Below, piece by piece: positions 17,743 through 52,807 of a stretch of DNA of 64,000 nucleotides. The notes beneath the pieces are model-generated. The model did not search any database. It worked only from the letters and a program-made list of their open reading frames with translations, and was not told the DNA's origin. Source of the DNA: Blastocystis sp. Blastoise (lineage: Eukaryota > Protista > Bigyra: Opalinata); NCBI GenBank assembly GCA_039096225.1, contig JBBPEB010000007.1:1240001-1304000 (forward strand), read 5' to 3'. The position numbers were made by a program, and so were the translations under genes. Every line of letters starts with the position of its first letter. Position 1 is the first letter of the stretch.

Positions 17743-17782
17743 TTTCTAGAACATTCTAGAACATTCTCGAAACTTCTAGAAT
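17743..17782. promoter_or_regulatory. HSE array (8 pentamers)
   Basis: TTCtaGAAcaTTCtaGAAcaTTCtcGAAacTTCtaGAA, ~45 bp upstream of the ORF at 17827. Confidence 0.75.
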
Positions 17783-17826
17783 AATAAATTGTATTATTCT
17801 TTTTTTATATTTTTATACTATATATT

Positions 17827-17994
17827 ATGGATTCTCCAAAGCAATTTGCTCCAGATTATAAAGAAGGTACTTGGAAACCTTATGGAAATTTTGAAGTTGA
17901 TGAATTAAGTAATAGTGATTCTGATGTGGATACTATTCAAACTGAAAGTGAAGATGATTATGAAGATTATATAAAAAATTTTATTGATTTTTAA
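17827..17994 (+). CDS. Small acidic viral protein (55 aa), not in the ORF track
   Basis: MDSPKQFAPDYKEGTWKPYGNFEVDELSNSDSDVDTIQTESEDDYEDYIKNFIDF*; directly downstream of an HSE array. Confidence 0.6.
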   Translation: MDSPKQFAPDYKEGTWKPYGNFEVDELSNSDSDVDTIQTESEDDYEDYIKNFIDF

Positions 17995-18068
17995 ATTAAT
18001 TTTTATAAATAACAAAACAAATTGTTTAGTTTTTAAAAATAATAATAAATAAAACAAATTAAAATTAA

Positions 18069-19559
18069 CTAATGTTTTCTACGTTTATTTCTTAATTTTT
18101 TATTTTTTGAAATACGTCTTTTTCTACGTAATCCATTACCTTCTTCGAGATCATAAAATACCTCACCATCATCTTCATCAAATGATTGAAATTCATCATC
18201 TTCTTTTTTATTTCTTTTATTGTTATTTACAAGAGTGACATTTTCTACTGGATTAGGAATAGGGGCTACAGGTGTAATATTTGAAGTGAATTTATTCGTG
18301 ACTGCTTGAGACATTGGAACAGTATCAGGTAAAGGAACAGTAGGATCATTTATAAGAGGAATTAAATTTGGAGGATTTGAATCTTCAATAGTAATATTAT
18401 GAATATTTTCTTGTGTTAGAGTATCAGGAGTAGATGAAGAAGTTGGTATAACATTATTATTTGCTTCTATTGGATTTTCTGTTTGTGGTATTTCTTCATC
18501 TGGATTCTTACCATACCACCAATTTGAAAAACTATTAAACGCGTTCTTTGTACCGCTAATAACAGAGTTTGCAACATTCTTAACACCATTAACAATAGGT
18601 GTTCCTACATTTGTTGCAGTATTAACAACTTTATTAACAAATGTAGGGTTTTCTGCATATGGAATATAATTATTATGAAATGTTTTTGCTTGATCTTCTA
18701 AAGATTTACTTTTGTTAAGTCTTTGTTCTTTAGTATCATTGCCTGACATATGAGCAAATCTGAAATAGTTTTCAGCTAATATTTTATTTTTTTTCTTAGC
18801 TTCATTATCATCAGTTAATTTCCAATTATCATATAAATTATTTCTATCACTTACAAGTTTTCCTTTAATATCATTGAATCCTTCTTTTGGATCAACATTA
18901 ATATCTCTCCACCAATTCTTGAGATCTTTGAATTTATTTGCACCATAATCAACAGCATTACTTATTCCATGAGTGATGTTATTAATACCTCCAGTTAATT
19001 TATCAGACACATTGTATACATCACTTACAGTGTGATAAATATTAGAAAATAAATTACCACCTCTAGAATATAAGTAACCATCACGATCTCTTTTAGTAAA
19101 ATCAATAGCACTATCAATTGTACGAGGATTTAATAATCTAGAATATTTAGAATAATCAGACATATGATTTTGTTTCATATAAGGTAAGACATAATCATGA
19201 GCATAAATAAGTTTTCTTGTAAAGTTCTTTGGAATTCTACCATCAGGTAATAGCCCAGATCCTTCATCTATTGGTTCACTTTCTTCTGATTCTTCTAATG
19301 AATTTTGTATAACATCTTGTCTGGTTTCTGACAAATATGAATAGAATGGATTTGACGTTGCTCTATTAACCATATTACTTTCAATTTTTTTAACAGCATA
19401 TAATGAATTTGGAGCAATAGAATAATTAATTGGATGACGTTCTTCCCCATCAGGAATAGATCCTGGAACAATATAATTTCGATATTCATGACCAGTAGCA
19501 CGATGATTTACGCCTACTAATCCTTTATTTGAAACATTTAAACGAGCACTTTGTATCAT
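18069..19559 (-). CDS. Viral hypothetical protein (496 aa), possible virion core/membrane protein
   Basis: Intronless ORF; EGSGLL, RGGNL and EGNGL motifs; basic C-terminal tail after the last GxG; amphipathic ..NWW segments. Confidence 0.7.
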   Translation of the reverse strand: MIQSARLNVSNKGLVGVNHRATGHEYRNYIVPGSIPDGEERHPINYSIAPNSLYAVKKIESNMVNRATSNPFYSYLSETRQDVIQNSLEESEESEPIDEGSGLLPDGRIPKNFTRKLIYAHDYVLPYMKQNHMSDYSKYSRLLNPRTIDSAIDFTKRDRDGYLYSRGGNLFSNIYHTVSDVYNVSDKLTGGINNITHGISNAVDYGANKFKDLKNWWRDINVDPKEGFNDIKGKLVSDRNNLYDNWKLTDDNEAKKKNKILAENYFRFAHMSGNDTKEQRLNKSKSLEDQAKTFHNNYIPYAENPTFVNKVVNTATNVGTPIVNGVKNVANSVISGTKNAFNSFSNWWYGKNPDEEIPQTENPIEANNNVIPTSSSTPDTLTQENIHNITIEDSNPPNLIPLINDPTVPLPDTVPMSQAVTNKFTSNITPVAPIPNPVENVTLVNNNKRNKKEDDEFQSFDEDDGEVFYDLEEGNGLRRKRRISKNKKLRNKRRKH

Positions 19560-19683
19560 TTTAGTTTAATAAAATAATTATGATTTTTAAAACAAAACAA
19601 AAATATATATATATATATTAACAAAATTATAATTTAAATGGCAAACATAATATTGCATAAATAAGTAAATATAATATAGTCTA

Positions 19684-20862
19684 TTAAGTTTCATCGTTTT
19701 GCTGATTTCTTAATCCACTATGTTCTTTATCAGGAAGTGCCTTATTTTCATTAAATAAACCTTCATTATATTTGATAATGAATTCATCAAGTGGCATTGT
19801 TCCGTACGTTTTATATATATAGCCTGACTTTTCAGCTGATCTAACATAAATTTTTTCATCTTTAAGAATGAATACCTGATCTTTAAACTCTGGATTATTA
19901 CATATTACTTTTGAGTTCTTACCATTAACATAAATTGTGAATGGTATACCACTTTCAACAATATCATAATGCATACCTTGTTCATCCATCTTATCTTCAA
20001 ATGCTTTGGCATCTTTTTTACGGTTACTCTCATAATTATCCATCTTAGCGTTTGTTTTATTAGTATCATTTTGACGATTCTTTTCATATTTATCCATTCT
20101 AGATTGTGTATTGTTATAGTCTTGATGACGATTATTTTCATATTTATCCATCTTTGAATTTGTATTGTTAACATCTTTTTTACGATTATTTTCATATGTA
20201 TCCATTTTAGAGTTTGTAATATTATTATCTGATTGACGATTATTTTCATATGTATCCATCTTTGAGTTCAAATATTCGTTATCTTTATGTAGATTTTCAT
20301 AATTACCAGTCATATTTTGTTTCATTGAAGCTGCTTCAGCATGTATGTCATCATTATTGGTTTTAATTTGATATGAAATATTATTTAATTGATCATACAT
20401 ATCTTTTTGAGCATTTGAATAGAATTCATAATTCTCTTTATTCTGTTTATATGCTTCTGAATTCAATCCATTTAAGCCTTTTATTGAAGATAATAATGTT
20501 TCATATTGATAATTATTAGGATTACTAGCATCATACCATATCTTACTGGTAGTAGGTACACCATAATTCGTTTGCCATTGAGATAACATAGATGAGTATC
20601 TTGCAGTATCTCCATTAGCTTTAGCTGAATTCATAGTAGCTATAAACATATCTTCAGGTGATTGACCATGATTTCTTAATGCTTGAACTGCCATTGAGCT
20701 ATACATAGATCCTTGTGCATTAGGATCATGTGCTAATGGTTGTACAGGTTGTTCATCTTGACAAATATATGAATTGGGTAACCATGGATCCCAAGATTGT
20801 TTTTTCTGATTTCTTGATAAAATATCATAGAGAGTTACACTATCTCCTAAATTACTTTGCAT
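19684..20862 (-). CDS. Viral hypothetical protein (392 aa) with ~18-aa tandem repeats
   Basis: 5-6 copies of NSKMD(T/K)YENNRxxDxNxT. Confidence 0.75.
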   Translation of the reverse strand: MQSNLGDSVTLYDILSRNQKKQSWDPWLPNSYICQDEQPVQPLAHDPNAQGSMYSSMAVQALRNHGQSPEDMFIATMNSAKANGDTARYSSMLSQWQTNYGVPTTSKIWYDASNPNNYQYETLLSSIKGLNGLNSEAYKQNKENYEFYSNAQKDMYDQLNNISYQIKTNNDDIHAEAASMKQNMTGNYENLHKDNEYLNSKMDTYENNRQSDNNITNSKMDTYENNRKKDVNNTNSKMDKYENNRHQDYNNTQSRMDKYEKNRQNDTNKTNAKMDNYESNRKKDAKAFEDKMDEQGMHYDIVESGIPFTIYVNGKNSKVICNNPEFKDQVFILKDEKIYVRSAEKSGYIYKTYGTMPLDEFIIKYNEGLFNENKALPDKEHSGLRNQQNDET

Positions 20863-20938
20863 TATTTATTGTATTAAATTAAAAATAATTATATAACAAA
20901 ACAAATAATTAATTATGAAATAATAAAAATTAAAATAA

Positions 20939-21976
20939 TTAATTTAAATGGAATTTTTTTAAGAAGAATTGAACAAGATTAATAATTAGATTAGTAGTAG
21001 TATCAAAGGATGTAGAGTTGACAAGAGCACCACCACAACGTTCAGCATTCTCTTTTGTAACACCACTTCCACTAGGATTTTTAAAGTAGTTATCAGCAGT
21101 TTCTTTACGTTTCTTATCATCATCGGTAGTAATCATATTATAAGCGAAATCAATAGGGATACCAAGAGAAGGATAATAGTATTTTAATGCATTCACTACA
21201 ATAGGAACAATCGTTTTAATAGTTTTAATAGCAGTATTCGCAATAATAGAATGCTTTTGTTTTGGATCCATAGGATATTCTTTATCGATAACGACATTAA
21301 CAATATCACGTACAGACACATGCTCATCATTTTTAGGTAATCGTTCTTTAATATCTTGTAATTTCTTCTTATTAGACTTTACATTACTAGAACGAATAGC
21401 CTTCTTAGCAATAATTTTTATTTGAGGAGTTACAAATTTACTTGTTTTCTTTTCTTTTTCTCGGTGACTCCCATGTTCTTTACGATGTTTCTGATGCCTT
21501 CTATGTATACCTTGACCAAATATATCATCATAATTTTCATCTTCAAGATTTGCATTATTATAATCTTTATCATCATCAGCCATCATTTTTCTTGTTATTC
21601 TCTTTGGTTGATAAGTATCATCATCGTTATATAATTCATCATCTCTATTAGCATCTTCAATATGTTCTTCAAATTGTCTTTTCTTTTCTTCTTTTGCTTT
21701 TTCTTGACGTTTTTGTTCTTTACGTTTCTGATAATAATTATATCCAGCAAATGCTCCTAATGTACCTAAAATAGGTAATGCAGTATAGACACCATTTTTA
21801 AAATCAGCCCAATCAGCATCTTTAGCTTGTTGTCTAACAATTTCTTCAAAACCAGTTCCTCCATATCTTACATAACGTTTATGATAAAGATCACGTCTAT
21901 TTGATTTTGGTGGTGATCCTCCAAATAATCGTGGATCACAATTTTGTTTTAAATATCTTTTTGTAATTGAACTCAT
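20939..21976 (-). CDS. Viral hypothetical protein (345 aa) with a hydrophobic segment and GxG motifs
   Basis: ALPILGTLGAFAGYNYY hydrophobic helix; YGGTGF, FGQGI, SGSGV and CGGAL motifs. Confidence 0.7.
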   Translation of the reverse strand: MSSITKRYLKQNCDPRLFGGSPPKSNRRDLYHKRYVRYGGTGFEEIVRQQAKDADWADFKNGVYTALPILGTLGAFAGYNYYQKRKEQKRQEKAKEEKKRQFEEHIEDANRDDELYNDDDTYQPKRITRKMMADDDKDYNNANLEDENYDDIFGQGIHRRHQKHRKEHGSHREKEKKTSKFVTPQIKIIAKKAIRSSNVKSNKKKLQDIKERLPKNDEHVSVRDIVNVVIDKEYPMDPKQKHSIIANTAIKTIKTIVPIVVNALKYYYPSLGIPIDFAYNMITTDDDKKRKETADNYFKNPSGSGVTKENAERCGGALVNSTSFDTTTNLIINLVQFFLKKFHLN

Positions 21977-22029: not shown

Positions 22030-23067
22030 TTAATGAAAAGAAGGATAACCAGAATAATGTTTTTTATTTAAATAAGGATTGAAAATGCGTCGTTGACTAT
22101 CTTGTATGATTTGATCTTGTATGATTTGTAAGATGGATTCTTTAGGTTTATCTTTTTCATCTCGTTCAATACCTTTCAATGAGACTTCTTCTTCAACAGG
22201 TAAAAACTTCTTCATTTTCTTTTCATATGTAGATACACGTTCATTAGGACGTTTAATACCACTACCTGATACTTCACCTTGTTCTTCTCGTTTCTCTTTT
22301 TCACTATCTTCTTCTGTCCATTTCCTTTTCTTTACCATCTTATATACATTCTGTTTACTACCACAATCAGGATTTGTCCATATTGTTAAATCATCACTAC
22401 CTTGTTTTAACATAAAGAATTGATGTGGATCATTCATTAATTCTTCATCTGTAAGAATTTCATTTAGATTCGATGGCATAATCTTTAATTTATCTGGTAA
22501 GAATCCAGGATCACGTTTTAAGATTTGACTATTAATAAAGAAATGAGATACTTGACTTAATATAGATTGATTGGTAACATCTGTATGACTTTGAAGACAT
22601 ATAATAGCATTCTGTTTATAATGACGACCTTTAGATAATATAGATACAATCAATTGTTTGGTTTGTCTAGATAATGGATAGATATCATCCAATACAATAA
22701 AATTATGTTCTGGTAATTTATATGTATTGACTAATTCATCAACAGTTTTAATCTTTTTAAATTTATCATCTACAGAATCATACCATTTATAATCAATTCC
22801 AGCATGTTCACAAATATCTTGAAAGGATGTATAACATTCATTCTTATTGGATGCATCAGGACAAATTACTGTGACTTGTTTATATTTATTTTTAAGATCC
22901 ATAGAACATAAGAGGTTCACAGTTAAGAAAGATTTTCCTGAGAATGTTCTTGCAATAATCAATATGAATTTTGATTCATATGTTTTATGATGGGATTTTC
23001 CATATTTAAATTCTAAGACTCCACATCCTTTACGTGTTTCTTTTAATGGATTTATTTTATTCACCAT
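22030..23067 (-). CDS. A32-like (FtsK-HerA) genome packaging ATPase
   Basis: Walker A ILIIARTFSGKS, Walker B FIVLDD, and the A32 signature LSKGRHYKQNAIICLQ. Confidence 0.9.
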   Translation of the reverse strand: MVNKINPLKETRKGCGVLEFKYGKSHHKTYESKFILIIARTFSGKSFLTVNLLCSMDLKNKYKQVTVICPDASNKNECYTSFQDICEHAGIDYKWYDSVDDKFKKIKTVDELVNTYKLPEHNFIVLDDIYPLSRQTKQLIVSILSKGRHYKQNAIICLQSHTDVTNQSILSQVSHFFINSQILKRDPGFLPDKLKIMPSNLNEILTDEELMNDPHQFFMLKQGSDDLTIWTNPDCGSKQNVYKMVKKRKWTEEDSEKEKREEQGEVSGSGIKRPNERVSTYEKKMKKFLPVEEEVSLKGIERDEKDKPKESILQIIQDQIIQDSQRRIFNPYLNKKHYSGYPSFH

Positions 23068-23903: not shown

Positions 23904-25127
23904 TTAATTGGTTGCACCATCTCTAACAAATTTAACAAATATAAAATGAGCATATAAAGTATAAGTACCACTAGTAATATTTGCACCATTATATTCAGTT
24001 AATAAGGAGATATTAACTTCACAACCACTACGAGTATTGACATCAACAACACTTGAAATAGGGAATATATAAATAGGTTGTTCATACCATTTCTCACCAT
24101 TCAAAGGAGATTGAGGATGACTATTACATCTCCAAGTATTATAAAGCATAGCATTAGGAATAATTTGTGATGGATTCGTTGTTTTATATGTAGTAGGGAA
24201 ATCCGTCTTTGGTAAGATATTTTGACCACCAATTTGGAATTGACACATCTTCAATAATTCAGTCTTAATAGGAATCATACTCTTCTCTTGAGTTGTAAAA
24301 TATAACATACAGTAATCAGGTACGAAAACAACACTTCTATTGGATAAGAATTGTTGTGGAGTTGGTTTACCTGCTGTTGTGAATGTTTGTGAATAAACAG
24401 GTGTAGTAAATGCAGATATTTGACAATTATTAGGAATACATTTAATCAAAGCACGTGGATCATTACCAAAATTAATATCATAGATTTGTTGAAGATGAAT
24501 ATAAACACGATCAAATGTTAATGCAGTGATTTTAGTGGTTCCAGTAAATAGATTCTTTAAATAATTTGTAACGAATTGCATCTTCAAAGATTTTACTTTA
24601 ATAGCACAATCAAATGTACCAAGACCAGTAATAAGAGATAAAGGAATAATAACTTGAGCTTTAGTAGAACTTTGCATTCCAGAAATACTGCTTAATGTTG
24701 TATTATATAAGCATTCAGTCATACTATACATAGATTTATCAATTTCATCTTTACTTAATTCTTTAATAGTAACAAATTTTCTTGCTTTACTGGATTCAAT
24801 AGAAGATTCAGAATAATTAATAAGAATATCTTGACCCGTAGGAGATACAAACGTAAGATCTGTAGTAATTTTATCAATAATACTATAGATATTAGAATGT
24901 TGTACAACAGAACTAGTTGTAGCTGCATTTGTTGTAATATTGAAATTCAGTTCTAAGAATGAATTACTGAAATCAATAAAAGGACTATCCACTGAATTAT
25001 ATAAGAATTCAAATGGATAAGGTTGATTTAATAAATCTTGACTTGTAGAAACTAGAATAGGAATTTGTACAGGTTTAATAGTTTGATTTGCCTTTGAAGG
25101 TAAGAATTGTCTTGGGAATCCTTCCAT
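23904..25127 (-). CDS. Major capsid protein-like (double jelly-roll), paralog 1
   Basis: 407 aa, beta-rich; FEF..FIDFSNSFLELNFNI, NIYSIIDKI and IIPLSLITGL resemble the Polinton/PLV MCP N-terminal pattern. Confidence 0.75.
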   Translation of the reverse strand: MEGFPRQFLPSKANQTIKPVQIPILVSTSQDLLNQPYPFEFLYNSVDSPFIDFSNSFLELNFNITTNAATTSSVVQHSNIYSIIDKITTDLTFVSPTGQDILINYSESSIESSKARKFVTIKELSKDEIDKSMYSMTECLYNTTLSSISGMQSSTKAQVIIPLSLITGLGTFDCAIKVKSLKMQFVTNYLKNLFTGTTKITALTFDRVYIHLQQIYDINFGNDPRALIKCIPNNCQISAFTTPVYSQTFTTAGKPTPQQFLSNRSVVFVPDYCMLYFTTQEKSMIPIKTELLKMCQFQIGGQNILPKTDFPTTYKTTNPSQIIPNAMLYNTWRCNSHPQSPLNGEKWYEQPIYIFPISSVVDVNTRSGCEVNISLLTEYNGANITSGTYTLYAHFIFVKFVRDGATN

Positions 25128-25303: not shown

Positions 25304-26776
25304 TTAAATATCACGTACACTACGTACAGCAATCATATGTAATGTATAAGGATGCTTCTCATTTAGTTCAGTATTAATATGTTTATAAATACCAGCATGA
25401 GAAGCAACGGCATAAGAAGCACCAGTGTCAGGTGTCCATATTTTAGTAGTTTCATTATATGTACATGTATATCCATCAGGAACAGTAGATGAATCAGCAT
25501 GACCATATTCAATATCATGGACATCTAGATTACAATCAAAATTCATTTCTATACCACTATCTGATTGGATATTCATTAATGCTTTAGTTGGAATAATATA
25601 AATAGGATGTTTAATCCATTCATCATATTTAAGAATAGTTTCAGGATTTGAATTATCAGCCCATAAACAATATAGATTTTTATTAGGACAAGATAAACTA
25701 GCAGTTTCTTCATTATTGAAGACATGACCTTTAGTAGTAAGATTATGATAATACATTTGAGTAGGGAATTCAGTTTGAGGGAACATTTGAACATCACCAA
25801 TCAAACAACTTTGATATTTAGGCCATACAGATGGACTAGCTACATTACTAATAGTTGTTGAACTATAACCATTTGTAAACCAGTATAATATATATTCAGG
25901 TATAAATGGTAAAGCTCTATTGATATTGAAATGATCACTAGTTATTCTTGTATTTTGATAATCGACTTGAATACATGTAGGTATAGTTTTATATAATTCA
26001 TTCGTTTGGAATTGAATATCTTTATAAGTCATTAAATTCATAGTAGCTGATTCCAATTCAAATGTCTTAAACCATTTTTCATCAGTTAGATGTAACCATT
26101 GTGTTGATAATTTAGCACCACCATTCTTGAAATAAATACTCATATTATTATCAATTAAGGATTCAATTGTACTCGTTCTAAATAGCATATTGAAATGTTT
26201 AGTTAATATTAAAGAATCTCCATCAACACCTAAACCACTAATGAGATATAAAGGAATAGCAATATGAATAGATTGTTTTGGATGTGCACGTATATAACGA
26301 ATAGAATTCAATTCATAAGTATCTGCAGATAAATCTTCACCATACATAGATTTTTCTAAATCATTCTTACTGATATCTTTTAATAAAATCATCTTACGAC
26401 CACGTGAAGCATGTGTACAGTTTTCTTCATATTTCAAAGCACGATCAGATCCATCAGGTAAAGTATAAACCATTTCAACATCAGTGGAATCAATAATAGA
26501 ATAAATATTAGCTTTCTGAACTAATTGATCCAAGAAATATTGACATAATTGATCATAGGTGAAACTAACAGAAGTACCTGTTTCATCTAAATAAACAGAA
26601 ACTGGTCCAGCTTTATCTGTTACAGTTGCCTTGACAGTAAGATCCAAATATGATTGATTGAAATTGATATAAGTATTATCCACATTAGTCCAATGATATT
26701 GAAAGATATAAGGACTTGATAGAATATCAGTATCACTTTGAATAGGAATATTATCTTTAATTCTTAAGATTCTCAT
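25304..26776 (-). CDS. Major capsid protein-like, paralog 2
   Basis: Collinear similarity to 23904-25127: YINFNQSYLDL, NIYSIID, DLEKSMY, IPLYLISGLG, FIPEY, FPQTEFPT, PIYIIP, YTLH. Confidence 0.7.
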   Translation of the reverse strand: MRILRIKDNIPIQSDTDILSSPYIFQYHWTNVDNTYINFNQSYLDLTVKATVTDKAGPVSVYLDETGTSVSFTYDQLCQYFLDQLVQKANIYSIIDSTDVEMVYTLPDGSDRALKYEENCTHASRGRKMILLKDISKNDLEKSMYGEDLSADTYELNSIRYIRAHPKQSIHIAIPLYLISGLGVDGDSLILTKHFNMLFRTSTIESLIDNNMSIYFKNGGAKLSTQWLHLTDEKWFKTFELESATMNLMTYKDIQFQTNELYKTIPTCIQVDYQNTRITSDHFNINRALPFIPEYILYWFTNGYSSTTISNVASPSVWPKYQSCLIGDVQMFPQTEFPTQMYYHNLTTKGHVFNNEETASLSCPNKNLYCLWADNSNPETILKYDEWIKHPIYIIPTKALMNIQSDSGIEMNFDCNLDVHDIEYGHADSSTVPDGYTCTYNETTKIWTPDTGASYAVASHAGIYKHINTELNEKHPYTLHMIAVRSVRDI

Positions 26777-34693: not shown

Positions 34694-34778
34694 GATTATT
34701 TGACTTATAAATAATGAAAATAAATATGGTATAAAATTCAAAACAAATAATATATTAAAGATTCTAGAAGTCAGTTTT

Positions 34779-35633: not shown

Positions 35634-36031
35634 TATAATCGCGAATATCGTTACAGAGAGAAAATTTGTATTTATCAAAATGAAATAAATAATACATTTA
35701 AATGGAATATTAAATATTCTAGGAGACAGTGTAGAATCTCTATGGAATGTTCTAGAAGGTTCATTTGATTGGCTAATTTTGTCTACTTAGCATTTTTTAT
35801 TTGTGTTTCGATGACGAGTATAGTCGGCATCTGTAATCTGATTGGATAAAAAAATTAGTAAAACACAATTAGACGATGACGACGATGTGTCATACGAAAT
35901 AAGTTATTTTATTGGCTTATTTTCCAGCTGGAAGCAATAGGCTTTTGTTAGCAACTGAAATGAAGAACTGTACACTAAAAATAGTATATTTAATATATTG
36001 TATAAAAATACTTTTGAAGGTTTAAATAATC

Positions 36032-36757: not shown

Positions 36758-36807
36758 TTTCTAGAACCTTCTCGAACATTCTAGAACCTTCTCGAACCTT
36801 CTCGAAC
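36758..36807. promoter_or_regulatory. HSE array (10 pentamers) upstream of the putative SSB
   Basis: (TTCt[a/c]GAAc[c/a])x5. Confidence 0.8.
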
Positions 36808-39180: not shown

Positions 39181-39272
39181 AGAGTAAAGATGAAAAACTT
39201 ATTCAAAATTCAATGAATTGTGATAATCCTATTATATCTGATAAAACTCGTCATGTTACTCCTAGATCCCCT
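39153..39272 (+). other. Predicted -1 programmed ribosomal frameshift signal
   Basis: A_AAA_AAC at 39153-39159 in frame 0, a 7-nt spacer, then stem AGGGGATCTGG..GAGTAA..ATGA pairing with TCAT.TTACTC.CTAGATCCCCT (39251-39272). Confidence 0.7.
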
Positions 39273-39644
39273 GATAATTTCAAACAAACTCTATCTCAAT
39301 ATTGTAATATACCAAATTCTCTAATATCTCAATTATATAATTATGCTTATTTAAATAAACCTACCTCATCTGTTGCTTGTGATCGTGCTGAAAATGTTAT
39401 GAAACAATTAAATAAAACAAATTCTCAATCTTATAATTATTATAATAGTTATGATGATTTTGAACAAAATATAGATCAAGATCAAACTAAATTTAATATG
39501 ATCTTCCATGAAAGTCCTAGTGATCCTTATAATGGTCATTTTGAAGCTGTTATTTATAATGGTAATAAAAATATAGAACACTATTCATCATTAGGAAATA
39601 AACCTACTTTTTCAAAATCATTTATTCAAAATCATAATATTCAA

Positions 39645-42600: not shown

Positions 42601-43867
42601 TTTTTCAAATAAATCATATTCAGTGTCCATGAATGATTCTAAACACTAATTAAAACGTTTTAAGAGTTTATTGAGTTAACATTGTCTGGTGATCTGTTGT
42701 CACAGTCTTTTAAAAACAAAATAAAATTATAAAATATGTTTATTTTGATATATAGTTTTTAAATATAAAGTCTAATGTCAAATAAAATTGTTAATGATGA
42801 AAATATAAACAAAAAACAAATGAAAACTTTTTAAGAAAATTTTTTGAAAGTCATTTTTTATTGAGTTCAACTATTGACTCTTGTCACCTGAGTTTTCAAT
42901 TAATTAAAAAAATGAAAAATATGTATCTGCTATGACATGTCTAGTTTCTAAATATGTTCTAACTTTTTTATTTTATTAAGAATTGATTGAGAAATCACAA
43001 TAACAAACTATACCCTTTTTTGAAAATTTTCATTTTTATGTTTTTCATATAAATGAATGTTTCTCAGTCAATATTAAATATTTAGATAAAATAAAAAATA
43101 TGTATCTGCAATAGCTTATCTTAATTATAATTATACTTTTATTTTTAAAAAATACCCAAAACTCAAGGAGAAAGACGAATAACAAACTATACTATCAAAA
43201 CATCAAAATTTCTATTATCAAATATTTTCTTATTAAAACATATTATTAAAATATAAAACATATTTATGACGGATACAGAGTTAAATAAATACATTAAAGC
43301 TCAAATAAATTTATAAAGAAGGAATGTGTCGGATATCAGTTTGACTTTTGTTGTTATTTAAAGGAATTATTGTGGTTTCAGAGTAGTTGAGGTCAGTATC
43401 ATAACAACTGAAACCATTTTAGAGTTTATAGTTAGTGATGTGTGTATTGATATGTTGTCAAGTTGTAAATATAAACAAATTTACCCGTCAAAACTATTTA
43501 TAAGACTAACCCGTCAATAAAAGTCAATTTTATAAAAATAAATATAGAGTATGTGAAGTGATATAGGAAAAATAAGAAAACAATAAAAAATGAAAATGGA
43601 AAAATAAGTGTTTTTATAAAAATGAAAAATATTGGATAAAATAAAAATAATCCAATAATTTTGGTTAAAATTTTGTGCGAAAATGGTTTTTTGCGATTTT
43701 TAGCCAGAAATTTAGAGTTTTTGAAAAATTTCTTTAACAGTCATTTTCAGAATTGTGTTCCGGATTTTATGATGTTATTTTTATTTTATAAAAGTTAATA
43801 ACAAAGTCAAGAATAGTGAAAGTCTGTGAGACACCGTACGCTACATGAACTAAATTAAGGATATTAA
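39645..43867 (-). mobile_element. Non-autonomous Helitron-like element, family A, copy 2 (4223 bp)
   Basis: Minus strand 5'-TTAATATCCTTAATTTAG...hairpin GGCTGGCGTAGCCAGTC..CTTG-3'; inserted at A|T with no TSD; no long ORF. Confidence 0.8.
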
Positions 43868-43920
43868 TATAATCCTATTCAACACCAAAAAACTACAAGT
43901 AATGCAAATGGTTGCTTTTA

Positions 43921-46900
43921 TTAATATCCTTAATTTAGTTCATGTAGCGTACGGTGTCTCACAGACTTTCACTATTCTTGACTTTGTTATTAACTTTTAT
44001 AAAATAAAAATAACATCATAAAATCCGGAACACAATTCTGAAAATGACTGTTAAAGAAATTTTTCAAAAACTCTAAATTTCTGGCTAAAAATCGCAAAAA
44101 ACCATTTTCGCACAAAATTTTAACCAAAATTATTGGATTATTTTTATTTTATCCAATATTTTTCATTTTTATAAAAACACTTATTTTTCCATTTTCATTT
44201 TTTATTGTTTTCTTATTTTTCCTATATCACTTCACATACTCTATATTTATTTTTATAAAATTGACTTTTATTGACGGGTTAGTCTTATAAATAGTTTTGA
44301 CGGGTAAATTTGTTTATATTTACAACTTGACAACATATCAATACACACATCACTAACTATAAACTCTAAAATGGTTTCAGTTGTTATGATACTGACCTCA
44401 ACTACTCTGAAACCACAATAATTCCTTTAAATAACAACAAAAGTCAAACTGATATCCGACACATTCCTTCTTTATAAATTTATTTGAGCTTTAATGTATT
44501 TATTTAACTCTGTATCCGTCATAAATATGTTTTATATTTTAATAATATGTTTTAATAAGAAAATATTTGATAATAGAAATTTTGATGTTTTGATAGTATA
44601 GTTTGTTATTCGTCTTTCTCCTTGAGTTTTGGGTATTTTTTAAAAATAAAAGTATAATTATAATTAAGATAAGCTATTGCAGATACATATTTTTTATTTT
44701 ATCTAAATATTTAATATTGACTGAGAAACATTCATTTATATGAAAAACATAAAAATGAAAATTTTCAAAAAAGGGTATAGTTTGTTATTGTGATTTCTCA
44801 ATCAATTCTTAATAAAATAAAAAAGTTAGAACATATTTAGAAACTAGACATGTCATAGCAGATACATATTTTTCATTTTTTTAATTAATTGAAAACTCAG
44901 GTGACAAGAGTCAATAGTTGAACTCAATAAAAAATGACTTTCAAAAAATTTTCTTAAAAAGTTTTCATTTGTTTTTTGTTTATATTTTCATCATTAACAA
45001 TTTTATTTGACATTAGACTTTATATTTAAAAACTATATATCAAAATAAACATATTTTATAATTTTATTTTGTTTTTAAAAGACTGTGACAACAGATCACC
45101 AGACAATGTTAACTCAATAAACTCTTAAAACGTTTTAATTAGTGTTTAGAATCATTCATGGACACTGAATATGATTTATTTGAAAAAGTTAGGACAACAT
45201 GTTGAACTGATACAGACAATGTTTGTTCTAAAAAGTAAGTTATCAGTCTTACTAAGTTGTAAATATCATAAATATGCTTTAAATAAATAAATATGCTTTT
45301 AATTATCTTTAATTAGTGAAATAAGTCGTTTAAAAAGAAGAAAGCATTTTGGATACTATAGTTTATTTTGACAATTTCTCCATCAATATTAATTTTTAAA
45401 AAATAAATAAAACTTATATATAAACTAGACAACCTATAGTTTATATATTTATAAAAATACTAGGGTCACGCCGCAGGTCCGGGGCCTAACGGCACCGGAC
45501 CGCGGCTGCATAAAATAATAACAGTTTGGCTTTTATTTTCTTTTTTTCATTATTATATATTATCTATTATATATTATTATTTATTATCTATTATATATTA
45601 TATATTATATATTATATAATATATAATATATTATATATTATATATTATATATTATATATTATATATTATATATTATATATTATATATTATATATTATATA
45701 TTACTTTAATAACACTTCTTATACTCTATATGGAGAGTTACAATCATTTATTGATTGTAATCAGGTTCAATTCCTGATATAAGAATTAAATAAATTCTTT
45801 AAATGATATCAAAAAAACTAAAAACAATACTTGAAAGAAAATTAAAAAACTATTTTGAATCATTATACATATTATTTATTATTTTTAAAATATATTTTGT
45901 ATTTATTAATAATTAAACAACTGTTTTAAACATTTTGTGAGTTTTTAAAGTCAATAACTTTAGAAATGAGTCACAATGTGAAGAACTCTGAAGTATTTTT
46001 AATTCATAAAAGTTATTTAAATAAACGTAATATAATGATTTAAACTCATTTTCATACTTTTTAAAAGAATTAGAAAGCTTTAATCATAACAAAGTCAGCA
46101 TTCATTCTAACTTTGACTAATAAAACATGGTTTAAAAAGTTAATATTTCTTCAGTTGTCTCAAATACTTATTTTAATCATAAATGACTCGAAAAAGTGAC
46201 TTTTAAATAGACTTTACCCATTCAAGATCCACTGTATCAAAACAGTTTCCGTCAGTCTTTTGATATAGTATAGAGTTTATCATACTATTTATTAAATAAA
46301 AGTAAATGTTTTGAATCTCTTTCTTAAAGACCCTTTTTGACACATTATGAAAAGTTGACACACTTAAATTCATTTTTATAAGCTAATATTTACACACTAT
46401 ACTTAATAATACCATAGCTACACATTGGTCATCACTTTAAGACATTTCGTAAACCTTTTGCATTTGCTCATTTACTTTGACCAAAATATTTTCGTCCCTC
46501 CTTTTGATATAATATAGACTGTGTGGTCTAGTTATATGAAAGTGAGATGGAATTTTGAATCTCGTCCTCTAAGTCAAACATTTTCACATTTTTAAAAATT
46601 AAGACCCTTAGAGTTGATTTTTGAAGTTAATTTTTCTACAGTGTTCCAAAAACACGATTTTGCACAAACTGAAGTAAAAATATTTTTTCAATAACTCTCA
46701 CAACCCTTTACACATGCAGTCTCTAAAAATAGATTTTGCTATATTTTTGATATGTTGTAGAGTGTCTCTTAGTGTATACTGAACAATATCTCGTTTCTTA
46801 AAACTCTCATTTTATGACTCTCTTTAAACATATTTTTACTAATTGAAAGACTTAAACACATTTTTAAAAGCTAATATTCACATAGTAGACTTTATATGAC

Positions 46901-49900
46901 TCTATAATCACATTAGTCAACACTTTAGACTTATTAAGAAGACTTTACCATTTGGTCATACACTTCGACCAAAATATTTTTGTCCCTCCTTTTAACATAA
47001 TATAGATCATACACTCTAGTTTAATGAATAAAAGCTCTTATTTTGAATCTCGTCCTCTAAGTCACTCATTTTTACATTTTTTTAAATTTAAGACCCTTAG
47101 AGTTGACTTTTTGACTCAATTTTTCTACAGTGCACGAAATTCACGATTTTATATAAACTGAAGTAAAAATAAATTTTAAATAATAGTCACAACCCTTCAC
47201 ACATCCACTCTCTAAAAATTATTTTCTTTGTACTTTTGATATGTTGTAGAGCTACTACAGCTGTACACTAATTAATATCTCTAAATTTTTTATTCAAAGT
47301 CTAAGACTATGTTTTACACATTCTTTGAAATTTGACAACCTTAAACTATTTATTTAAAGCTCTTATTCATAGAATATACTTAATATATGATTCGAAACAC
47401 ATATATAAACCCTTTTACTTTTTAAGACACATTTTGTCATTTGGTCATACACTTTGACCTTCATAATTTTGACTCTTCTTTTGACATAGAATAGAGTATT
47501 ATCTTTAGTTTACTAAATAAAAGTCATTATATTGAATCTCTCACTCTAAGACCACTTAATTCACATTTTTCAAAATTGTGACACTCAAACTCATTATTTT
47601 AAAACTTTGTTTTAACTATAGTAGTTTGAGGACCTATTGATTACTATGATACAATATTAGTCCATTATAAGAAGATCGAAGAAAAATATCGATCACTCAA
47701 AAATCGTCCTCAGGAGCTCAAAATTGGCACACCTAGGTTTTTTGACCTCCTGAATCAGAATATCATGTCAAAATAAGAATCTAAATTTGACCGTTAAGGC
47801 CTCACGTGTTCAATATGAAAAAGTATTAAAAAATAGATAAATATAAAGAATAAACACGGATAACGTATATTGTGGGATTGAGAAAAAATCAAGTTTACCC
47901 CATGTTTATTTTTCAATTGTCTGGTCAACAATTTTTATCGGGATGATCCCAAAGAGCCAATCAAAAACGACTCAAAAATCATGTTTTCTGTTCTTTTATT
48001 AATAACTTTTTAAATATAAATAATATCGCTTAACCAAATATATGGTGCACAACTACATGTTATATCCTATTGAACTGTGTTTCAACGAAAAGTTAACTCC
48101 CCGTAAGTTTAGAGGAGTTGTGGGTACAAACTTGAGTATATAGTAGCCAATCAAATGAATTTTCCAAAAACTGACCAATGGGAATTTTTTTGCCTATTCT
48201 CATATATATAGTAATGATTATCAAAATATTAAATAACTTTTGAGATAAAAAATTATATATGCAAAACATAAAAAAATTAATTTTTGAAAAAAGGGTATAC
48301 TTTATAACATTAATTTCTCAGTCAATATTTAATTATTTAATATAATTTTAGCAAATAAATATAGAGAATAACACATATTAATAATATAAATTTTAACATT
48401 TAAAATTAATTAAGAAATGAGTTCAGTAGAGTCAATAGTATAACATGTTAAAAAACTGAAAATTGAAAAATCATTTTTCTAAAAATTTTCCGAAAGTTGA
48501 CAAATCAAATTCATATTTGACAATTAATTTTTACATATTTGAAAACTAGACATTATATGTATTGCATTTCTCAAAAAATTAGTCAAAAATAAGTTAGACG
48601 AGTGTATGAGTATATGCACATGTTGACTCATAATTTTGAAAAAAGTAGTTAAATATGTCCTAAACCACATATCAAAGCAATTCTATAAATATTATCACTT
48701 TATAATGAGTTTAAAGGATAAAATAATTTTGAATTGTCTGTTTGACTGTCTTAAGTGAAGAGATTCAATACACTTTTTATAAAAATGAGTATTAGAGTGT
48801 TTAATGTTTATAATAATAAAAGAATTGTTTGAAATAAAGGTGGTTGTGTGTTTGACCAAAATGTTAAAATGAGTCTATTTTTCTAAAATGGTTACAATAA
48901 GTATATATTGAGTGTTTTTAGAGTATTTTATATTAAAATCTACAATAAATAAACATTTTAAGTTGTTCAAAAAATTATTTTTTTAGAATTACAATAGTTA
49001 AGTCAAGAGATTCAAGTCACTTTTTATAATAATAATAAATAGACTTATTATAGAATATAAAATATTAAAAATTAGTTTAATTAAACATGGTTGACTGTTT
49101 GATAGGAGTGTTAAAATGGGTAAAAAGATTTTAATTGTTTCTAAAACTGTATAATACGTTTTTATGTCACTAAATACAAAATTATTATTGTTTAAAGAAT
49201 GTTTTTTGTCTTTCAAAAGAACTCATTCTTTGTAATTGTGACTTAAAACAAAAGAGATTCAAGTTATTTTTTACAAATTAAAATAATAAATTAAATATAT
49301 ATGTATATTAATATAAAATTCGTTTTAATAAAAGTGGATATGTGTATTTAAAAACGTTAAAATCTTTTAGAGTTTTTTAAAAATAACTTATTTGTTTTAT
49401 AAACTATATTTTATGTATAATAGGTAAAGTTTCCAAAGTATTTAAATCTATTTAGTTATGAAATGGAATGTAATTTTTGGTTTATATTTAGTTTTTCGTT
49501 TCATTTAATGAAATGATTTTGATAACACTATAAAAATTGAATTAAACTTGAATTAATTAATTTTAAATAATGAAAAGATAATTTCTCTATAAATATTCTC
49601 TTTTACTTAAAACGAATAGATTCTATTAATGATAAATATTAAAATAAGACTCTAATTTTTTTGTTTATTATATAAAGTAATAAATATCTTTTAATTATTA
49701 AGAGTACTTTTGTATTAATAATTCAAACTAAAATAAGTATAATAAAAGAAAAATTATAATATTTATCAAATAATATCAAGATATGATTACTATTTATATA
49801 ATTAAACATTTATTAATTGAGAAAAGCTGTATAATAAAATTTCTAAAATATTTATATAATAGTATATATAAAAGGAAAGGATAAAATATAAAAAAACAAA

Positions 49901-50900
49901 TAGATATCAAAATTATAATATTTTAAAAATAAAACAAAACAATATATGAAAAGAATAAAAAAGAATATATAATATTTTTTTAGACAAGAGAATAAGCTAT
50001 TTCTCACAATAATAATTATATAGACTAATTCAAATAAAACATAAATATTTAAAGGTAGGGTATAAGTGATAATAATATGTTTTAAAAGAAAAAGTATTTT
50101 ATAATCATATTGATATTATTTAAAATACTAAATATTTATAAAACTAAATGAATTGATAAAATACATAGAAAGTTATAAATGAAATAACAAAGAAAAGTGA
50201 ATTAATATTGAAAACTAAAAACTAAATAGAAATAGAAATAGAAATAGAAATAGAAATAGAAATAGAAATAGAAATAGAAATAGAAATAGAAATAGAAATA
50301 GAAATAGAAATAGAAATAGAAATAGAAATAGAAATAGAAATAGAAATAGAAATAGAAATAGAAATAGAAATAGAAATAGAAATAGAAATAGAAATAGAAA
50401 TAGAAATAGAAATAGAAATAGAAATAGAAATAGAAATAGAAATAGAAATAGAAATAGAAATAGAAATAGAAATAGAAATAGAAATATGAATAAGATCAAA
50501 ACTAAAACACAAGAGCTAATCAATTATCATTAATAAACAATAAATATATATAATCAATAATAAAAATAGCTAAAATAATACTAAATAAAAAAGGAAATAA
50601 TACTCAAAAAATGTAATATAAAATGTTAAATAGGAATTATGAATAAATTGTGAATTAAATTATTTAGAATATACTAAACTAATAACTAAACAATAGAAGA
50701 TAACAACTAAAACAATTGAAATAATAATTTATAAAATATGAAATAGTCTTCATCCTAAAAATAAAAAAATAGAAATGAATAACAAAAACATAAAAATAAA
50801 CATAATATTTAAAAAAAAATCAACATAAAATATAATAATTAAGAGATGACAACTATCAAAACTCAAGCGTAGGCTGGCGTAGCCAGTCGTGAAACGCTTG
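43921..50900 (+). mobile_element. Non-autonomous Helitron-like element, family A, copy 3 (contains a nested Helitron)
   Basis: Reverse complement of 39645-43867 (one homopolymer indel noticed) apart from the 45460-48217 insertion; A|T target. Confidence 0.8.
45460..48217 (-). mobile_element. Canonical non-autonomous Helitron (family B, 2758 bp)
   Basis: Minus strand begins TC (TCATTACTATATATATG) and ends CTAG; GC-rich subterminal hairpin CCGCaGGTCCGG..CCGGACCGCGG at 45471-45505; the empty site in the other palindrome arm (42328/42329) shows A|T insertion with no TSD. Confidence 0.92.
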
Positions 50901-51035
50901 TTATTCTTTACTTTATTTACTTTCTAATGGAAATCTTATGCCTTGTTAAAACATTCTAGAATATTCTAGAATCTTTAATTTATTATATTAATATTTTGTA
51001 TAATTAATTTGTTTTGTTTATTATTTAATACTATA

Positions 51036-51191
51036 ATGACAAAGAAACGATTTGGCAATTACTACTTAGATCGTAGTGCAGAAATTTTAGAGAATGTAAA
51101 TGAAATACTGTCAGTTATTGAAATTGTTCTTATTATTATATATATTTTACTTTACTTTTATATGTCCAAGAAACGTTCTAGAACATTCTAG
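51036..51191 (+). CDS. Small viral membrane protein candidate (51 aa)
   Basis: MTKKRFG.. with hydrophobic ILSVIEIVLIIIYILLYFY; 4-unit HSE upstream (50953-50972) and TTGTTTTGTT downstream. Confidence 0.45.
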   Translation: MTKKRFGNYYLDRSAEILENVNEILSVIEIVLIIIYILLYFYMSKKRSRTF

Positions 51192-51293
51192 AACATTCAT
51201 TTTGAACTGGCTCTATTTGTAGAATCTTTAATTTATTATATTAGTATTTTATATAATTAATTTGTTTTGTTTAATCATTGGTTAATTTAAATA

Positions 51294-51668
51294 ATGAACA
51301 AGAAATATCTTAGTTATTCTTATTTTTGTCGTGTGATGAAGAATCTAAAAGAAGAAGGAATTAAATCCAAAAAGAATGAAATAGCAAATCTATTAGAACA
51401 ATTTTTAAATAATAATAACAACAAGAATCTTAGTGATTTGCAATTGAGTTACTGTAGAAACATGTTACTTTATATAGATGATCCTGTGATTCATCAACGT
51501 CTTGAAATGCTATTGGATAAACAATATATGAAGAATGAGAATCAATATCAAGATGATAAGAATCTTATTCAACCCAATAATATGTTTATGCCAACTATGA
51601 AAAGTAATCAACAACAAAATCAATATCAAAATAATAATAATAATCTATCTTTCTTACCTTTTAATTAA
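51294..51668 (+). CDS. Viral hypothetical protein (124 aa)
   Basis: ATG ORF with N/Q-rich tail; 5-unit HSE at 51175-51199 upstream. Confidence 0.6.
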   Translation: MNKKYLSYSYFCRVMKNLKEEGIKSKKNEIANLLEQFLNNNNNKNLSDLQLSYCRNMLLYIDDPVIHQRLEMLLDKQYMKNENQYQDDKNLIQPNNMFMPTMKSNQQQNQYQNNNNNLSFLPFN

Positions 51669-51734
51669 TTTTTATATCCTTTTATTACTAGTTGTTTAGT
51701 TATTAAAATTATTAAACAAAACAAATATTAAAAA

Positions 51735-52670
51735 TTATTCAATTAATTTTTTAAATAAATTATTATTTTCTAAAGATACATAAGAATTAATATGTGTATA
51801 ATCATTATGACATAAAGCAGAAGCAGAATTTTCTATATCTTGGAATGTATTGGTTGTAGTTGTAGCATATAATTTTCTTAATGCATTAATGGTTAATTTT
51901 GGATGGATTTGTTTTAAATGCTTATTCACAAACCAATCAAATGCTTTAGTAGTAAATCCAGTTCTTACAGAAGATTCAAATATAAATTTACGATTTGGAT
52001 TTCTTTTTAAGAGTAATTCTAGATCTTCAATCAATTCTTTTGGTGCATCTAATTGAATTGTAGAGTATTTACCAGCAGTTTTATAATCATTCAATAGAAT
52101 AGAACCAGTGTGTTTCTCTTTATCATAAACAATATAATTCTTATGAATAACTGGATCAATAGTATCTTCTGGAGTTAGAATGAATAATTGAGCATAATCA
52201 GCACGAGCAGGAGGAAGATAGGAGTAAAAATCTAATATTAATCGTAATGGATTATAATTTTCTAATTTATCGTGATATTCATGTAAATATGGAGTCGTAA
52301 TACCATCTTTAATAAGATCTTGAATCAAAGTACGTTTCTTATTATCCAGATATTTTTCATACATTGAATTGATAATCACATAAAATTCACACCATTTATT
52401 TAAAATACCTTCTTTATTTAATGAAGAAACATTACGTATAATAAATAATATCAATTCACATAACGATTTCATTGGACTAATTTTGATTTTACGTTCATTT
52501 ACCATATAATCCATGAATGAATAAGGATTCTTTAAGAATTCTGAGAACTTTTTAAATGGTAATGGGAAAATATATAAATTGAAATAATTGGTTAAACGTT
52601 TTTTCCAAATATCAGAATAATTTGAATTCTGTATAACCAAAAGATACTTGTCATAATTTGTATTTTTCAT
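51735..52670 (-). CDS. Tyrosine recombinase 2 (PLV/virophage type)
   Basis: YSYLPPARADY (R), LNDYKTAGKY (K), TINALRKLYAT, ALCHNDYTHINSY (H..Y); first ATG at 52670. Confidence 0.85.
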   Translation of the reverse strand: MKNTNYDKYLLVIQNSNYSDIWKKRLTNYFNLYIFPLPFKKFSEFLKNPYSFMDYMVNERKIKISPMKSLCELILFIIRNVSSLNKEGILNKWCEFYVIINSMYEKYLDNKKRTLIQDLIKDGITTPYLHEYHDKLENYNPLRLILDFYSYLPPARADYAQLFILTPEDTIDPVIHKNYIVYDKEKHTGSILLNDYKTAGKYSTIQLDAPKELIEDLELLLKRNPNRKFIFESSVRTGFTTKAFDWFVNKHLKQIHPKLTINALRKLYATTTTNTFQDIENSASALCHNDYTHINSYVSLENNNLFKKLIE

Positions 52671-52757
52671 TGATTTTCTCAAGTAGAATCTCTAAAACTT
52701 CTATTTTCAAAAGAATAATACATAAGAAAATCAAAATAAAATATCTAAGATTCTCAT

Positions 52758-52807
52758 GTTCTCGAATGTTCTAGAAGTTTCGAGAATGTTCTAGAATATT
52801 CTAGAAA
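52758..52807. promoter_or_regulatory. HSE array (10 pentamers) upstream of recombinase 2
   Basis: TTCtcGAAtgTTCtaGAAgtTTCgaGAAtgTTCtaGAAtaTTCtaGAA. Confidence 0.8.

Follow-up and report, generated by a model that had tools for sequence, protein, structure and literature searches.

Eight arrays of the heat-shock-element (HSE) type precede non-structural genes of a provirus in tortoise-type Blastocystis. We consider it probable (about 0.6) that these arrays bind host HSF, and that the predicted viral replication and recombination genes would thereby be switched on under host stress. To our knowledge, the trigger of silent protist Polinton-like viruses is known only for those reading giant-virus promoters; here the sequence of the element names a candidate host trigger that is cheap to test.

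A Polinton-like provirus in Blastocystis sp. Blastoise

The window, a 64-kb stretch of genomic DNA that was analysed as a whole, contains an element that the initial annotation took for an endogenous DNA virus, and its double jelly-roll capsid protein and TIRs bear this out. The TIR-bounded virus measures 25.4 kb without an 11.3-kb insertion that splits it and interrupts a protease-like ORF (Table 1). A related strain holds about 18–20 copies that are about 99% identical, and such a near-identical multicopy family suggests recent movement.

On gene content and predicted folds, the element is a Polinton-like (MELD-type) virus. We found a double jelly-roll MCP, a packaging ATPase, and TIRs with a size in the range of 15–30 kb; as replicase and integrase, there is a primase-helicase recognised at E 2.4e-9 and there are two recombinases recognised by motif, with Pfam giving only Phage_integrase at E 0.084 for recombinase 2. 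Assignment as a Polinton/Maverick in the strict sense was rejected: none of the 18 viral ORFs had a Pfam match to pPolB or rve, and no target-site duplication, of 6 bp or otherwise, was seen at the flanks of the element. Nor was any gene for a DNA polymerase recognised.

The capsid assignment comes from an alignment-based AlphaFold fold, which matched the Sputnik capsid best in the PDB (E 7.7e-13) and MELD virus sp. best in BFVD (E 4.2e-18, TM 0.69). The predicted ATPase shows Walker motifs in alignment A1 and has nine relatives, all of them Blastocystis sp. Blastoise or unnamed ENA/Logan proteins. The primase-helicase has nine relatives among 1.84 billion representatives and belongs to a 19-member cluster. 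Recombinase 1 (21-member cluster) had no Pfam match at E 10, and does not align with recombinase 2 (10-member cluster) beyond the last motif. Atlas look-alikes of the SSB candidate, at 0.94–0.95, are viral clusters with DUF5871/DUF2738 on 10–18% of their members, a recognition below the strong threshold; we take DUF2738 to be linked to SSB. The core or fibre labels of the 496-, 392- and 345-aa ORFs come only from basic tails, Gly motifs and repeats, with no clear family match. Profile searches gave no match for the 812-aa and 223-aa ORFs, and family searches none for the protease-like ORF, orf124 or sORF51; sORF55 had no Pfam match at E 10, and its exact sequence is absent from the protein collection. 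A presumed resemblance of orf175 to HSBP1 made it a candidate HSBP1 mimic, which was rejected, as searches of the PDB and Pfam at E 10 returned generic coiled coils and no HSBP1. HSBP1 is absent from Blastocystis (PMC10690189, supplement file 7).

Divergent families exist: their primase-helicases are 41–45% identical, and gut metagenomes contain capsid proteins of about 60% identity. Queries with the ATPase, primase-helicase and capsid found no DNA of relatives in viral, metagenome or genome contigs, and phage records gave no match. None of 192 loci from a pattern search codes for a relative of the viral proteins in the window; in L193, the lone weak capsid match (26% over 110 aa), there is a single 3-unit run, and no further gene is shared.

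Table 1. Features of the provirus and of the host HSP20 locus (positions in the window; array distances are to the ATG).
Feature	Position	Strand	Description
Host HSE-like element	1504..1528		145–170 nt upstream of HSP20 start
Host HSP20 gene	1673..2320	+	Pfam PF00011, E 3.8e-26; 96% to Blastocystis sp. Blastoise protein
Left TIR	17023..17733		711 nt, 98.5% to right TIR
HSE-type array	17743..17782		8 units; 10 nt inward of left TIR; 44 nt upstream of sORF55
sORF55	17827..17994	+	acidic 55-aa ORF; array upstream
Three ORFs (496, 392, 345 aa)	18069..21976	-	putative core or fibre proteins; no array
Packaging ATPase (predicted)	22030..23067	-	PHROG 2666, E 1.4e-10; no array
Major capsid protein MCP407, double jelly roll	23904..25127	-	AlphaFold pLDDT 82.5; no array
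Second capsid-like protein (490 aa)	25304..26776	-	30% identical to MCP407 (alignment A3); no array
812-aa ORF, putative penton or minor capsid	26852..29290	+	label from initial annotation and gene position; no array
Recombinase 1 (598 aa), tyrosine-recombinase-like by eye	29849..31645	+	R/K/HxxR/H/Y-like motif order; no array
Primase-helicase (predicted, 1000 aa)	31691..34693	-	PHROG 1156 DNA primase, E 2.4e-9; two arrays upstream
HSE-type array	34779..34818		8 units; 85 nt upstream of primase-helicase
HSE-type array	34851..34900		10 units; 157 nt upstream of primase-helicase
orf207	35010..35633	-	N-terminal coiled coil; array upstream
HSE-type array	35744..35763		4 units; between divergent orf207 and orf175; 110 nt to orf207; proximal box points to orf207
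orf175	36032..36559	+	C-terminal coiled coil
HSE-type array	36758..36807		10 units; 75 nt upstream of probable SSB
Probable T7 gp2.5-like SSB (197 aa)	36883..37476	+	array upstream
Putative core protein (542 aa)	37552..39180	+	inferred label; 12-member cluster; no array
Protease-like ORF	39213..39642	+	GHF...SSLG motif by eye; no array
Insertion	39643..50902		11.3 kb, non-coding; 2.7-kb inverted ends; 4-nt ATTC duplication
HSE-type array	50953..50972		4 units; 63 nt upstream of sORF51
sORF51	51036..51191	+	hydrophobic 51-aa ORF; array upstream
HSE-type array	51175..51199		5 units; overlaps sORF51 stop codon; 94 nt upstream of orf124
orf124	51294..51668	+	array upstream
Recombinase 2 (311 aa), tyrosine-recombinase-like	51735..52670	-	catalytic motif order by eye; array upstream
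HSE-type array	52758..52807		10 units; 87 nt upstream of recombinase 2
Right TIR	52954..53662		inverted copy of left TIR

Structure and placement of the arrays

The eight arrays of perfect alternating pentamers were found exactly where they had been described, with 8, 8, 10, 4, 10, 4, 5 and 10 units, and their proposed match to the HSF-binding consensus holds: an HSE has three or more contiguous inverted nGAAn units, and 8/8 arrays have 4–10 perfect ones. Elsewhere in the window, runs of at least three units occur only at the HSP20 element in the host flanks, and the 11.3-kb insertion carries no array. In Markov simulations of viral DNA (order 2 and order 4, 100 runs each), chance produced 0.02–0.07 runs of four or more units per element and none of five or more. 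Most units (49 of 59) have the form AGAAn.

Spacers that vary around constant cores had been taken as a sign of selection rather than slippage. This stood in part: 14 of 102 interior spacer positions depart from the majority of their own array, and a scan that tolerated a break in one slot of four turned up no interrupted arrays within the virus, but the argument is weaker than first stated because tandem copying explains the arrays in part and three promoters go back to one origin. The arrays at 34851, 50953 and 51175 have zero spacer variation and resemble plain tandem copies. The primase-helicase, sORF51 and orf124 promoters are copies of one cassette (106/128 and 103/129 aligned letters identical), which leaves about five independent promoters, not eight.

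With regard to gene class, each array was confirmed to lie upstream of the primase-helicase, the putative SSB, recombinase 2 or small ORFs, with measured ATG gaps of 44–157 nt, and the 300 nt that precede the genes for the ATPase, capsid, putative penton, core proteins and 598-aa recombinase contain no array. An array-type promoter precedes 0 of 10 structural or packaging genes and 7 of 10 others (Fisher p 0.003), a test that overstates independence because three promoters were copied from one cassette, and in which several of the ‘structural’ labels are inferred. Upstream gaps of the array-free genes are short (32–176 nt). Furthermore, seven of 20 genes have an AGAAT(C/A) box in the 100 nt upstream, and these are precisely the genes next to arrays; 0 of the other 13 have one. 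The box sits 49–87 nt before the ATG and is distinct from the array in five of the seven. The proximal box is absent from orf175, whose array is 268 nt upstream. The distribution of the box implies that the arrays have a direction, as in a promoter, and the sequence supports their acting as directional promoter parts of the non-structural gene set.

At the other end of the genes, TGTTTTGTT is found on the coding strand downstream of 15 of 19 stops, and thus on most viral genes. It resembles the Blastocystis downstream gene element, a likeness that fits host-type mRNA ends; since that element is reported to be unenriched in tortoise strains, TGTTTTGTT may not be a host signal. Contigs from one of three sequencing runs match parts of the element at ~99% identity, in structural and primase-helicase genes both; the RNA status of this run is a guess, and its contigs cannot rank genes. 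The bin with the two primase-helicase arrays is uncovered by these contigs, which proves nothing.

Host HSF and other candidate binders

The host uses the same word. The shorter HSE version described at its HSP20 gene is present as three perfect units (1504–1518), a gap, and a fifth unit ending at 1528, a run expected 0.007 times per 300 nt of host DNA. HSP20 is the sole host stress gene in the window. Proteins with the HSF domain IPR000232 number 2, 3 and 2 in three tortoise Blastocystis strains (PMC10690189, supplement file 7). Among stramenopiles, the HSF PITG_04701 of the oomycete Phytophthora binds TTCTAGAA by EMSA, and more tightly with three units; HSFs of this genus mostly bind ungapped words (PMC11267843).

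If host HSF binds the arrays, the viral genes would presumably be transcribed in the nucleus by host RNA polymerase II, and several HSF trimers could bind cooperatively, 8–10 units having room for about three trimers, against fewer at the host HSP20 element. The primase-helicase, SSB, recombinase 2 and small ORFs would then form an early class, to be followed by the array-free late class. Excision and particles would be the outcome and are the least supported step: as recombinase 1 has no array, the claim that stress ‘switches on excision’ goes one step beyond the sequence, and the 311-aa recombinase 2 is a candidate for a role in excision. That the family is a helper-independent, stress-inducible provirus, in which a dedicated early regulon fired by host HSF ends in excision, replication and virion formation, is a tentative proposal to which we give less than even odds. 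HSF might be triggered by temperature swings in an ectotherm gut, oxygen on host exit, or proteotoxic stress from another infection. Two CRESS-virus contigs also carry an array and a TATA sequence ~100 nt before Rep, separate from the stem-loop region.

The same sequence evidence would suit host HSF binding the arrays as strong constitutive, entry-stage or life-stage (e.g. encystation) early promoters and not as a stress switch, which we regard as unlikely. Yeast Hsf1 has basal activity, and the two small ssDNA virus contigs with arrays before Rep are not known as latent. In Phytophthora, many HSFs vary between life stages, and an obvious coiled coil is missing from most (PMC11267843); stramenopile HSFs need not be heat sensors. 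However, the host employs the same word at HSP20, constant replication and recombinase expression from ~20 copies would probably be costly, and HSE-bearing, heat-activated mobile elements are documented (in excerpts of PMC5059998 and PMC6927752).

We think it improbable that the arrays are sites for a viral protein, be they iterons or origins for the primase-helicase, operators that a viral regulator would occupy or accessory recombinase sites. Phased TTCNNGAA runs do occur in phage replication-initiator genes: of the 68 IMG/VR loci that have runs of six or more units, 46 have them inside an ORF of 190 or more aa, and seven of nine tested array-holding ORFs are phage replication initiators, where HSF cannot act. 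Two arrays lie 10 and 146 nt inward of the TIRs, the 10-nt palindromic repeat can fold as hairpins in 7/8 arrays (-4 to -10 kcal/mol, without shuffle control), and, as no DNA polymerase gene was recognised, an origin of its own would be plausible. Against this, the virus has eight dispersed arrays just before start codons, with a directional box, where phages have a single in-gene cluster; the AGAAn bias contrasts with 16/70 in phage in-gene arrays; the TIRs themselves hold no array (one 2-unit site); and profile searches recognised no HSF-like or other DNA-binding domain in the small ORFs of the element, although a viral binder could lie in these ORFs or in the N-termini of the recombinases and escape such searches. 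A virus-encoded HSF-like domain was rejected, having no match in profile searches of the element ORFs.

Array 34851 repeats perfectly in tandem and simple repeats abound in the host, but neutral 10-nt minisatellites grown by slippage are a very remote explanation given the 14 variable spacer positions, the lack of any in-phase array with a broken core in our scan, and the confinement of arrays to the promoters of one gene class, with none in the insertion or host flanks.

If stress-activated host HSF is the trigger, seven named genes should rise with HSP20, and capsid genes later. Cultured tortoise Blastocystis strains exist, with many near-identical copies and only 2–3 HSFs. The provirus might then also account for virus-like particles that have been reported from Blastocystis, and could lead to a DNA virus of this widespread gut protist being cultured for the first time.

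Comparison with known systems

In the SOS induction of phage lambda, an integrated virus reads host stress to start replication, via cleavage of its own repressor. The Blastocystis model differs in that activation by the host factor would be direct, with no repressor identified. If it is true, then together with the CRESS Rep arrays it would make HSF a eukaryotic equivalent of the SOS signal that recurs among small DNA viruses. Phage iterons (lambda O-type) lie within replication-initiator genes; like the Blastocystis arrays, they are TTCNNGAA repeats in 10-nt phase that are associated with replication genes, and they differ in their single in-gene cluster, lack of AGAAn bias (16/70) and prokaryotic host.

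Among mobile elements, COPIA78/ONSEN and related Brassicaceae LTR retrotransposons are likewise genomic parasites with HSF-binding elements, and their HSEs grew by duplication of a proto-element, tying activation to host heat stress (PMC5059998, in excerpt). ONSEN, as the same excerpt describes it, has one LTR promoter, an RNA intermediate and measured induction (PMC5059998); the Blastocystis element has separate arrays on about seven genes, and is a capsid-encoding dsDNA virus of a protist, with a split between gene classes. Caenorhabditis Helitrons, as far as the excerpted text of PMC6927752 goes, are also DNA mobile elements with many HSEs, which HSF-1 binds; these mainly rewire nearby host genes, whereas the Blastocystis arrays face the element's own genes, between TIRs.

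Excerpts on Polinton-like viruses (PMC10120064) and MELD viruses (PMC8502044) describe the same 15–30 kb size, TIRs, capsid, ATPase, and Pri-Hel plus recombinase, and mention no HSE arrays. PolB and an rve-type integrase are described for the B. hominis MELD virus (PMC8502044, in excerpt); in the Blastoise element neither is recognisable and there are two recombinase-like genes. Mavirus/EMALE04 (PMC10945749) and the Tetraselmis PLVs (10.1101/2025.10.09.676808), in the available portions of both reports, are also integrated, with TIRs, a double jelly-roll capsid and many copies, and their reactivation has likewise been read from promoter motifs. Their trigger is stated there to be the late transcription machinery of a helper giant virus and not host stress (PMC10945749, 10.1101/2025.10.09.676808). 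In contrast to both, the motif of the Blastocystis virus is a host transcription-factor word, and it stands on non-structural genes only.

Phased arrays and probable array-type promoters

We scanned the 64 kb for alternating GAA/TTC cores spaced 5 nt, accepting three or more units, and found nine runs: a 3-unit run at 1504-1518 and, position for position, the eight viral arrays reported in the initial annotation. In 100 simulations each with order-2 and order-4 Markov models fitted to the viral DNA, a simulated element held 0.75-0.92 runs of 3+ units, 0.02-0.07 of 4+ units and none of 5+; of the real arrays, six out of eight reach 5-10 units. Spacer variation had been taken to mean selection. 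Interior spacer positions depart from their own array's majority at 14 of 102 places, and no interrupted viral array turned up when the scan was relaxed to tolerate one broken slot in every four; the sequences therefore favour constraint on the GAA/TTC cores, although three arrays without any spacer variation weaken the point.

An AGAAT[AC] box with an AT-rich stretch after it lies 49-87 nt before the ATG of all seven array genes and of none of the 13 others (20 genes). This box is distinct from the array in five of the seven, and in the divergent pair orf207/orf175 it faces orf207, not orf175. By our classing of genes, array-type promoters precede 0 of 10 structural or packaging genes versus 7 of 10 others (8 of 10 non-structural genes if orf175 is included), with a p value of 0.003 that is generous because three promoters are copies of one cassette and the upstream gaps of array-free genes are short. 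Recombinase 1 also lacks an upstream array, and the earlier observation that arrays shun the ATPase, capsid, penton, core and recombinase 1 genes stands. The cassette, an array plus a AGAATCTTTAAT box, occurs in copies ahead of sORF51, orf124 and the primase-helicase.

Read as nGAAn, 49 of the 59 units begin with A, and HSFs prefer AGAAn. This agrees with the TTCTAGAA site that the Phytophthora HSF PITG_04701 binds in EMSA, more tightly with three units; most other Phytophthora HSFs prefer ungapped words, differ between life stages and have no obvious coiled coil (PMC11267843, in excerpt). A host without any HSF, the objection foreseen in the initial annotation, is not what related strains present: supplement file 7 of PMC10690189, in the part available, credits three tortoise Blastocystis strains with 2, 3 and 2 proteins of the HSF DNA-binding type, and HSBP1 is absent from the same InterPro table. 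The window's host is itself a tortoise-type Blastocystis: low GC is in keeping with that clade (same source), and the HSP20 is 96% identical to a Blastocystis sp. Blastoise protein. The shorter array ascribed to host HSP20 is indeed present as the run at 1504-1518, with a chance of ~0.007 for a 3-unit run in any one 300-nt stretch of host sequence, in a host comparison confined to this one gene; a TTCTCGAA word is common to it and three viral arrays. HSP20 itself (1673-2320) carries a Cys-rich, metallothionein-like stretch ahead of its alpha-crystallin domain.

The arrays are likely to be HSF-bound early promoters, and we put the probability that HSF binds them at roughly 0.8. The integrated copy would be transcribed by host polymerase II; activated HSF would bind the long arrays cooperatively and raise the primase-helicase, SSB, recombinase 2 and small ORFs, and structural genes would come on afterwards by a route other than the arrays. 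That the arrays form a stress-responsive regulon seems somewhat probable; the full provirus-induction story, in which excision and particles would follow, is less likely than not. The trigger may be heat, a different stress or a life stage. Animal viruses make use of HSF1.

The provirus and its relatives

Coordinates and promoter distances of the features (window positions unless a locus is named)
Feature	Location	Description
Element	17023-53662	ends are 711-nt inverted repeats, 98.5% identical
Insertion	39643-50902	11.3 kb, non-coding, foldback-like; splits protease-like ORF; 4-nt duplication
Palindrome	42326-45462	inner, 1.5 kb, inside insertion
Insertion copy	12503-15667	partial, older; left host flank
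Capsid-like genes	23904-26776	two, side by side
Recombinase-like genes	29849-31645; 51735-52670	two, unrelated-looking
Array, sORF55		44 nt upstream
Arrays, primase-helicase		85 and 157 nt upstream
Array, orf207		110 nt upstream
Array, SSB		75 nt upstream
Array, sORF51		63 nt upstream
Array, orf124		94 nt upstream
Array, recombinase 2		87 nt upstream
Cassette copies	50907-51036; 51150-51295; 34690-34830	three
CRESS ssDNA contig arrays	L053:1483-1512 and 4544-4568; L068:997-1026	5-6 units, HSE-like
Giant-virus bin (GVMAG) contig array	L044:4000-4029	6-unit TTCTAGAA, in 22-nt gap of convergent genes

The element copy in the window is itself interrupted, by an insertion whose inverted 2.7-kb ends are 99.8% alike; without it the element spans 25.4 kb, 84% coding. 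No target-site duplication is visible in the flanks at the element ends. The 407-aa ORF has a predicted double jelly-roll fold (pLDDT 82.5), nearest to Sputnik in the PDB; in BFVD the closest match is a MELD virus protein (TM 0.69). PHROG matches back the ATPase and primase-helicase labels; those of both recombinases, core, penton and protease are putative, from motifs found by eye. The SSB label is probable, from weak Atlas look-alikes and from the link of DUF2738 to T7-like SSBs. Such SSBs are confirmed in large eukaryotic viruses in the accessible text of PMC4889955, where DUF2738 is not named.

There are 19 members in the primase-helicase cluster (18 named Blastoise) and 21 in that of the 598-aa recombinase (20 named Blastoise). 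Same-length members are 99.1-100% identical to the window protein for the former (12 of 15 compared, among them the window's own) and, for the latter, 98.7-99.8% (11 of 14 compared), near-identity which indicates that the family has spread recently. The same strain has more distant families as well, as do gut metagenomes. Unnamed ENA/Logan metagenome contigs of up to 24 kb hold dozens of capsid proteins ~55-63% identical and ATPases 76-80% identical (P0134-P0219, P0081-P0084, P0090 together), a wider, seemingly undescribed virus group.

TGTTTTGTT occurs within 100 nt past the stop on the coding strand in 15 of 19 viral genes (window 18011-51717, interrupted ORF excluded) and on the opposite strand at three of 19 stops, each at a convergent pair, a strand bias that marks it as a 3' element; 27 kb of host flank has two occurrences. 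It is similar to the downstream gene element known from human-type Blastocystis; in tortoise strains, according to PMC10690189, that element is not enriched. The virus may retain a 3'-end signal lost by the host lineage, or derive from a lineage using it.

The repeat word in other systems

Our largely open-access literature search found no paper describing HSE arrays in a Polinton-like virus; bioRxiv supplements or the PMC10120064 datasets might list such elements. Among the papers listed, one combines heat shock elements with polintons, a plant transposon review, and among the matches listed on endogenous protist viruses 'heat shock element' is unmentioned. The accessible parts of PMC10690189 (supplements covered for HSF terms) hold no virus or heat-shock passage, and those of the PMC10120064 main text lack Blastocystis, promoter, stress and heat. 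Other sources, likewise in excerpt, describe a B. hominis MELD virus with PolB and integrase (PMC8502044), old reports of virus-like particles (PMC12835684), provirus induction via helper promoters, not host stress (PMC10945749; 10.1101/2025.10.09.676808), a host-like latent module with HSF absent (10.64898/2026.10.09.758095) and no gene flux between egoviruses and Blastocystis (10.1101/2024.03.23.586382); on mobile elements, PMC6927752 covers Caenorhabditis Helitrons with HSE clusters and PMC5059998 heat-responsive LTR retrotransposons of Brassicaceae.

Outside the window, 68 IMG/VR loci carry 6+ units; in 46 of them the run lies inside an ORF of 190+ aa, and nine of these ORFs were tested, seven matching phage replication initiators. 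Phased TTCNNGAA runs stand mid-gene in phage replication-initiator genes, many with Lin1244_N domains (L006, L010, L023, L031, L042, L052, L072 and similar loci). An iteron role is the probable explanation of runs in phage initiator genes, these mid-gene TTCNNGAA runs included. One IMG/VR locus of the 68, the CRESS-virus contig L053, has two separate clusters; there and in L068 an array and TATA box lie ~100 nt before Rep. In the metagenomes, at least 120 loci have 8 units; the run is within a long ORF in one, and one stands before an HSP20 gene. The remaining scanned loci have mixed labels or none (57 plus 46 ORFs, the IMG/VR and metagenome sets taken together), and none of the IMG/VR or metagenome loci listed encodes relatives of the element proteins.

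Because phage initiator genes hold it too, the repeat word by itself is no proof of HSF; it is in promoter anatomy that the element differs. In the phage loci the run sits inside the gene and few units are AGAAn (16 of 70, from 11 loci, versus 49 of 59 in the viral arrays), whereas the element has AGAAn-rich arrays dispersed before start codons.
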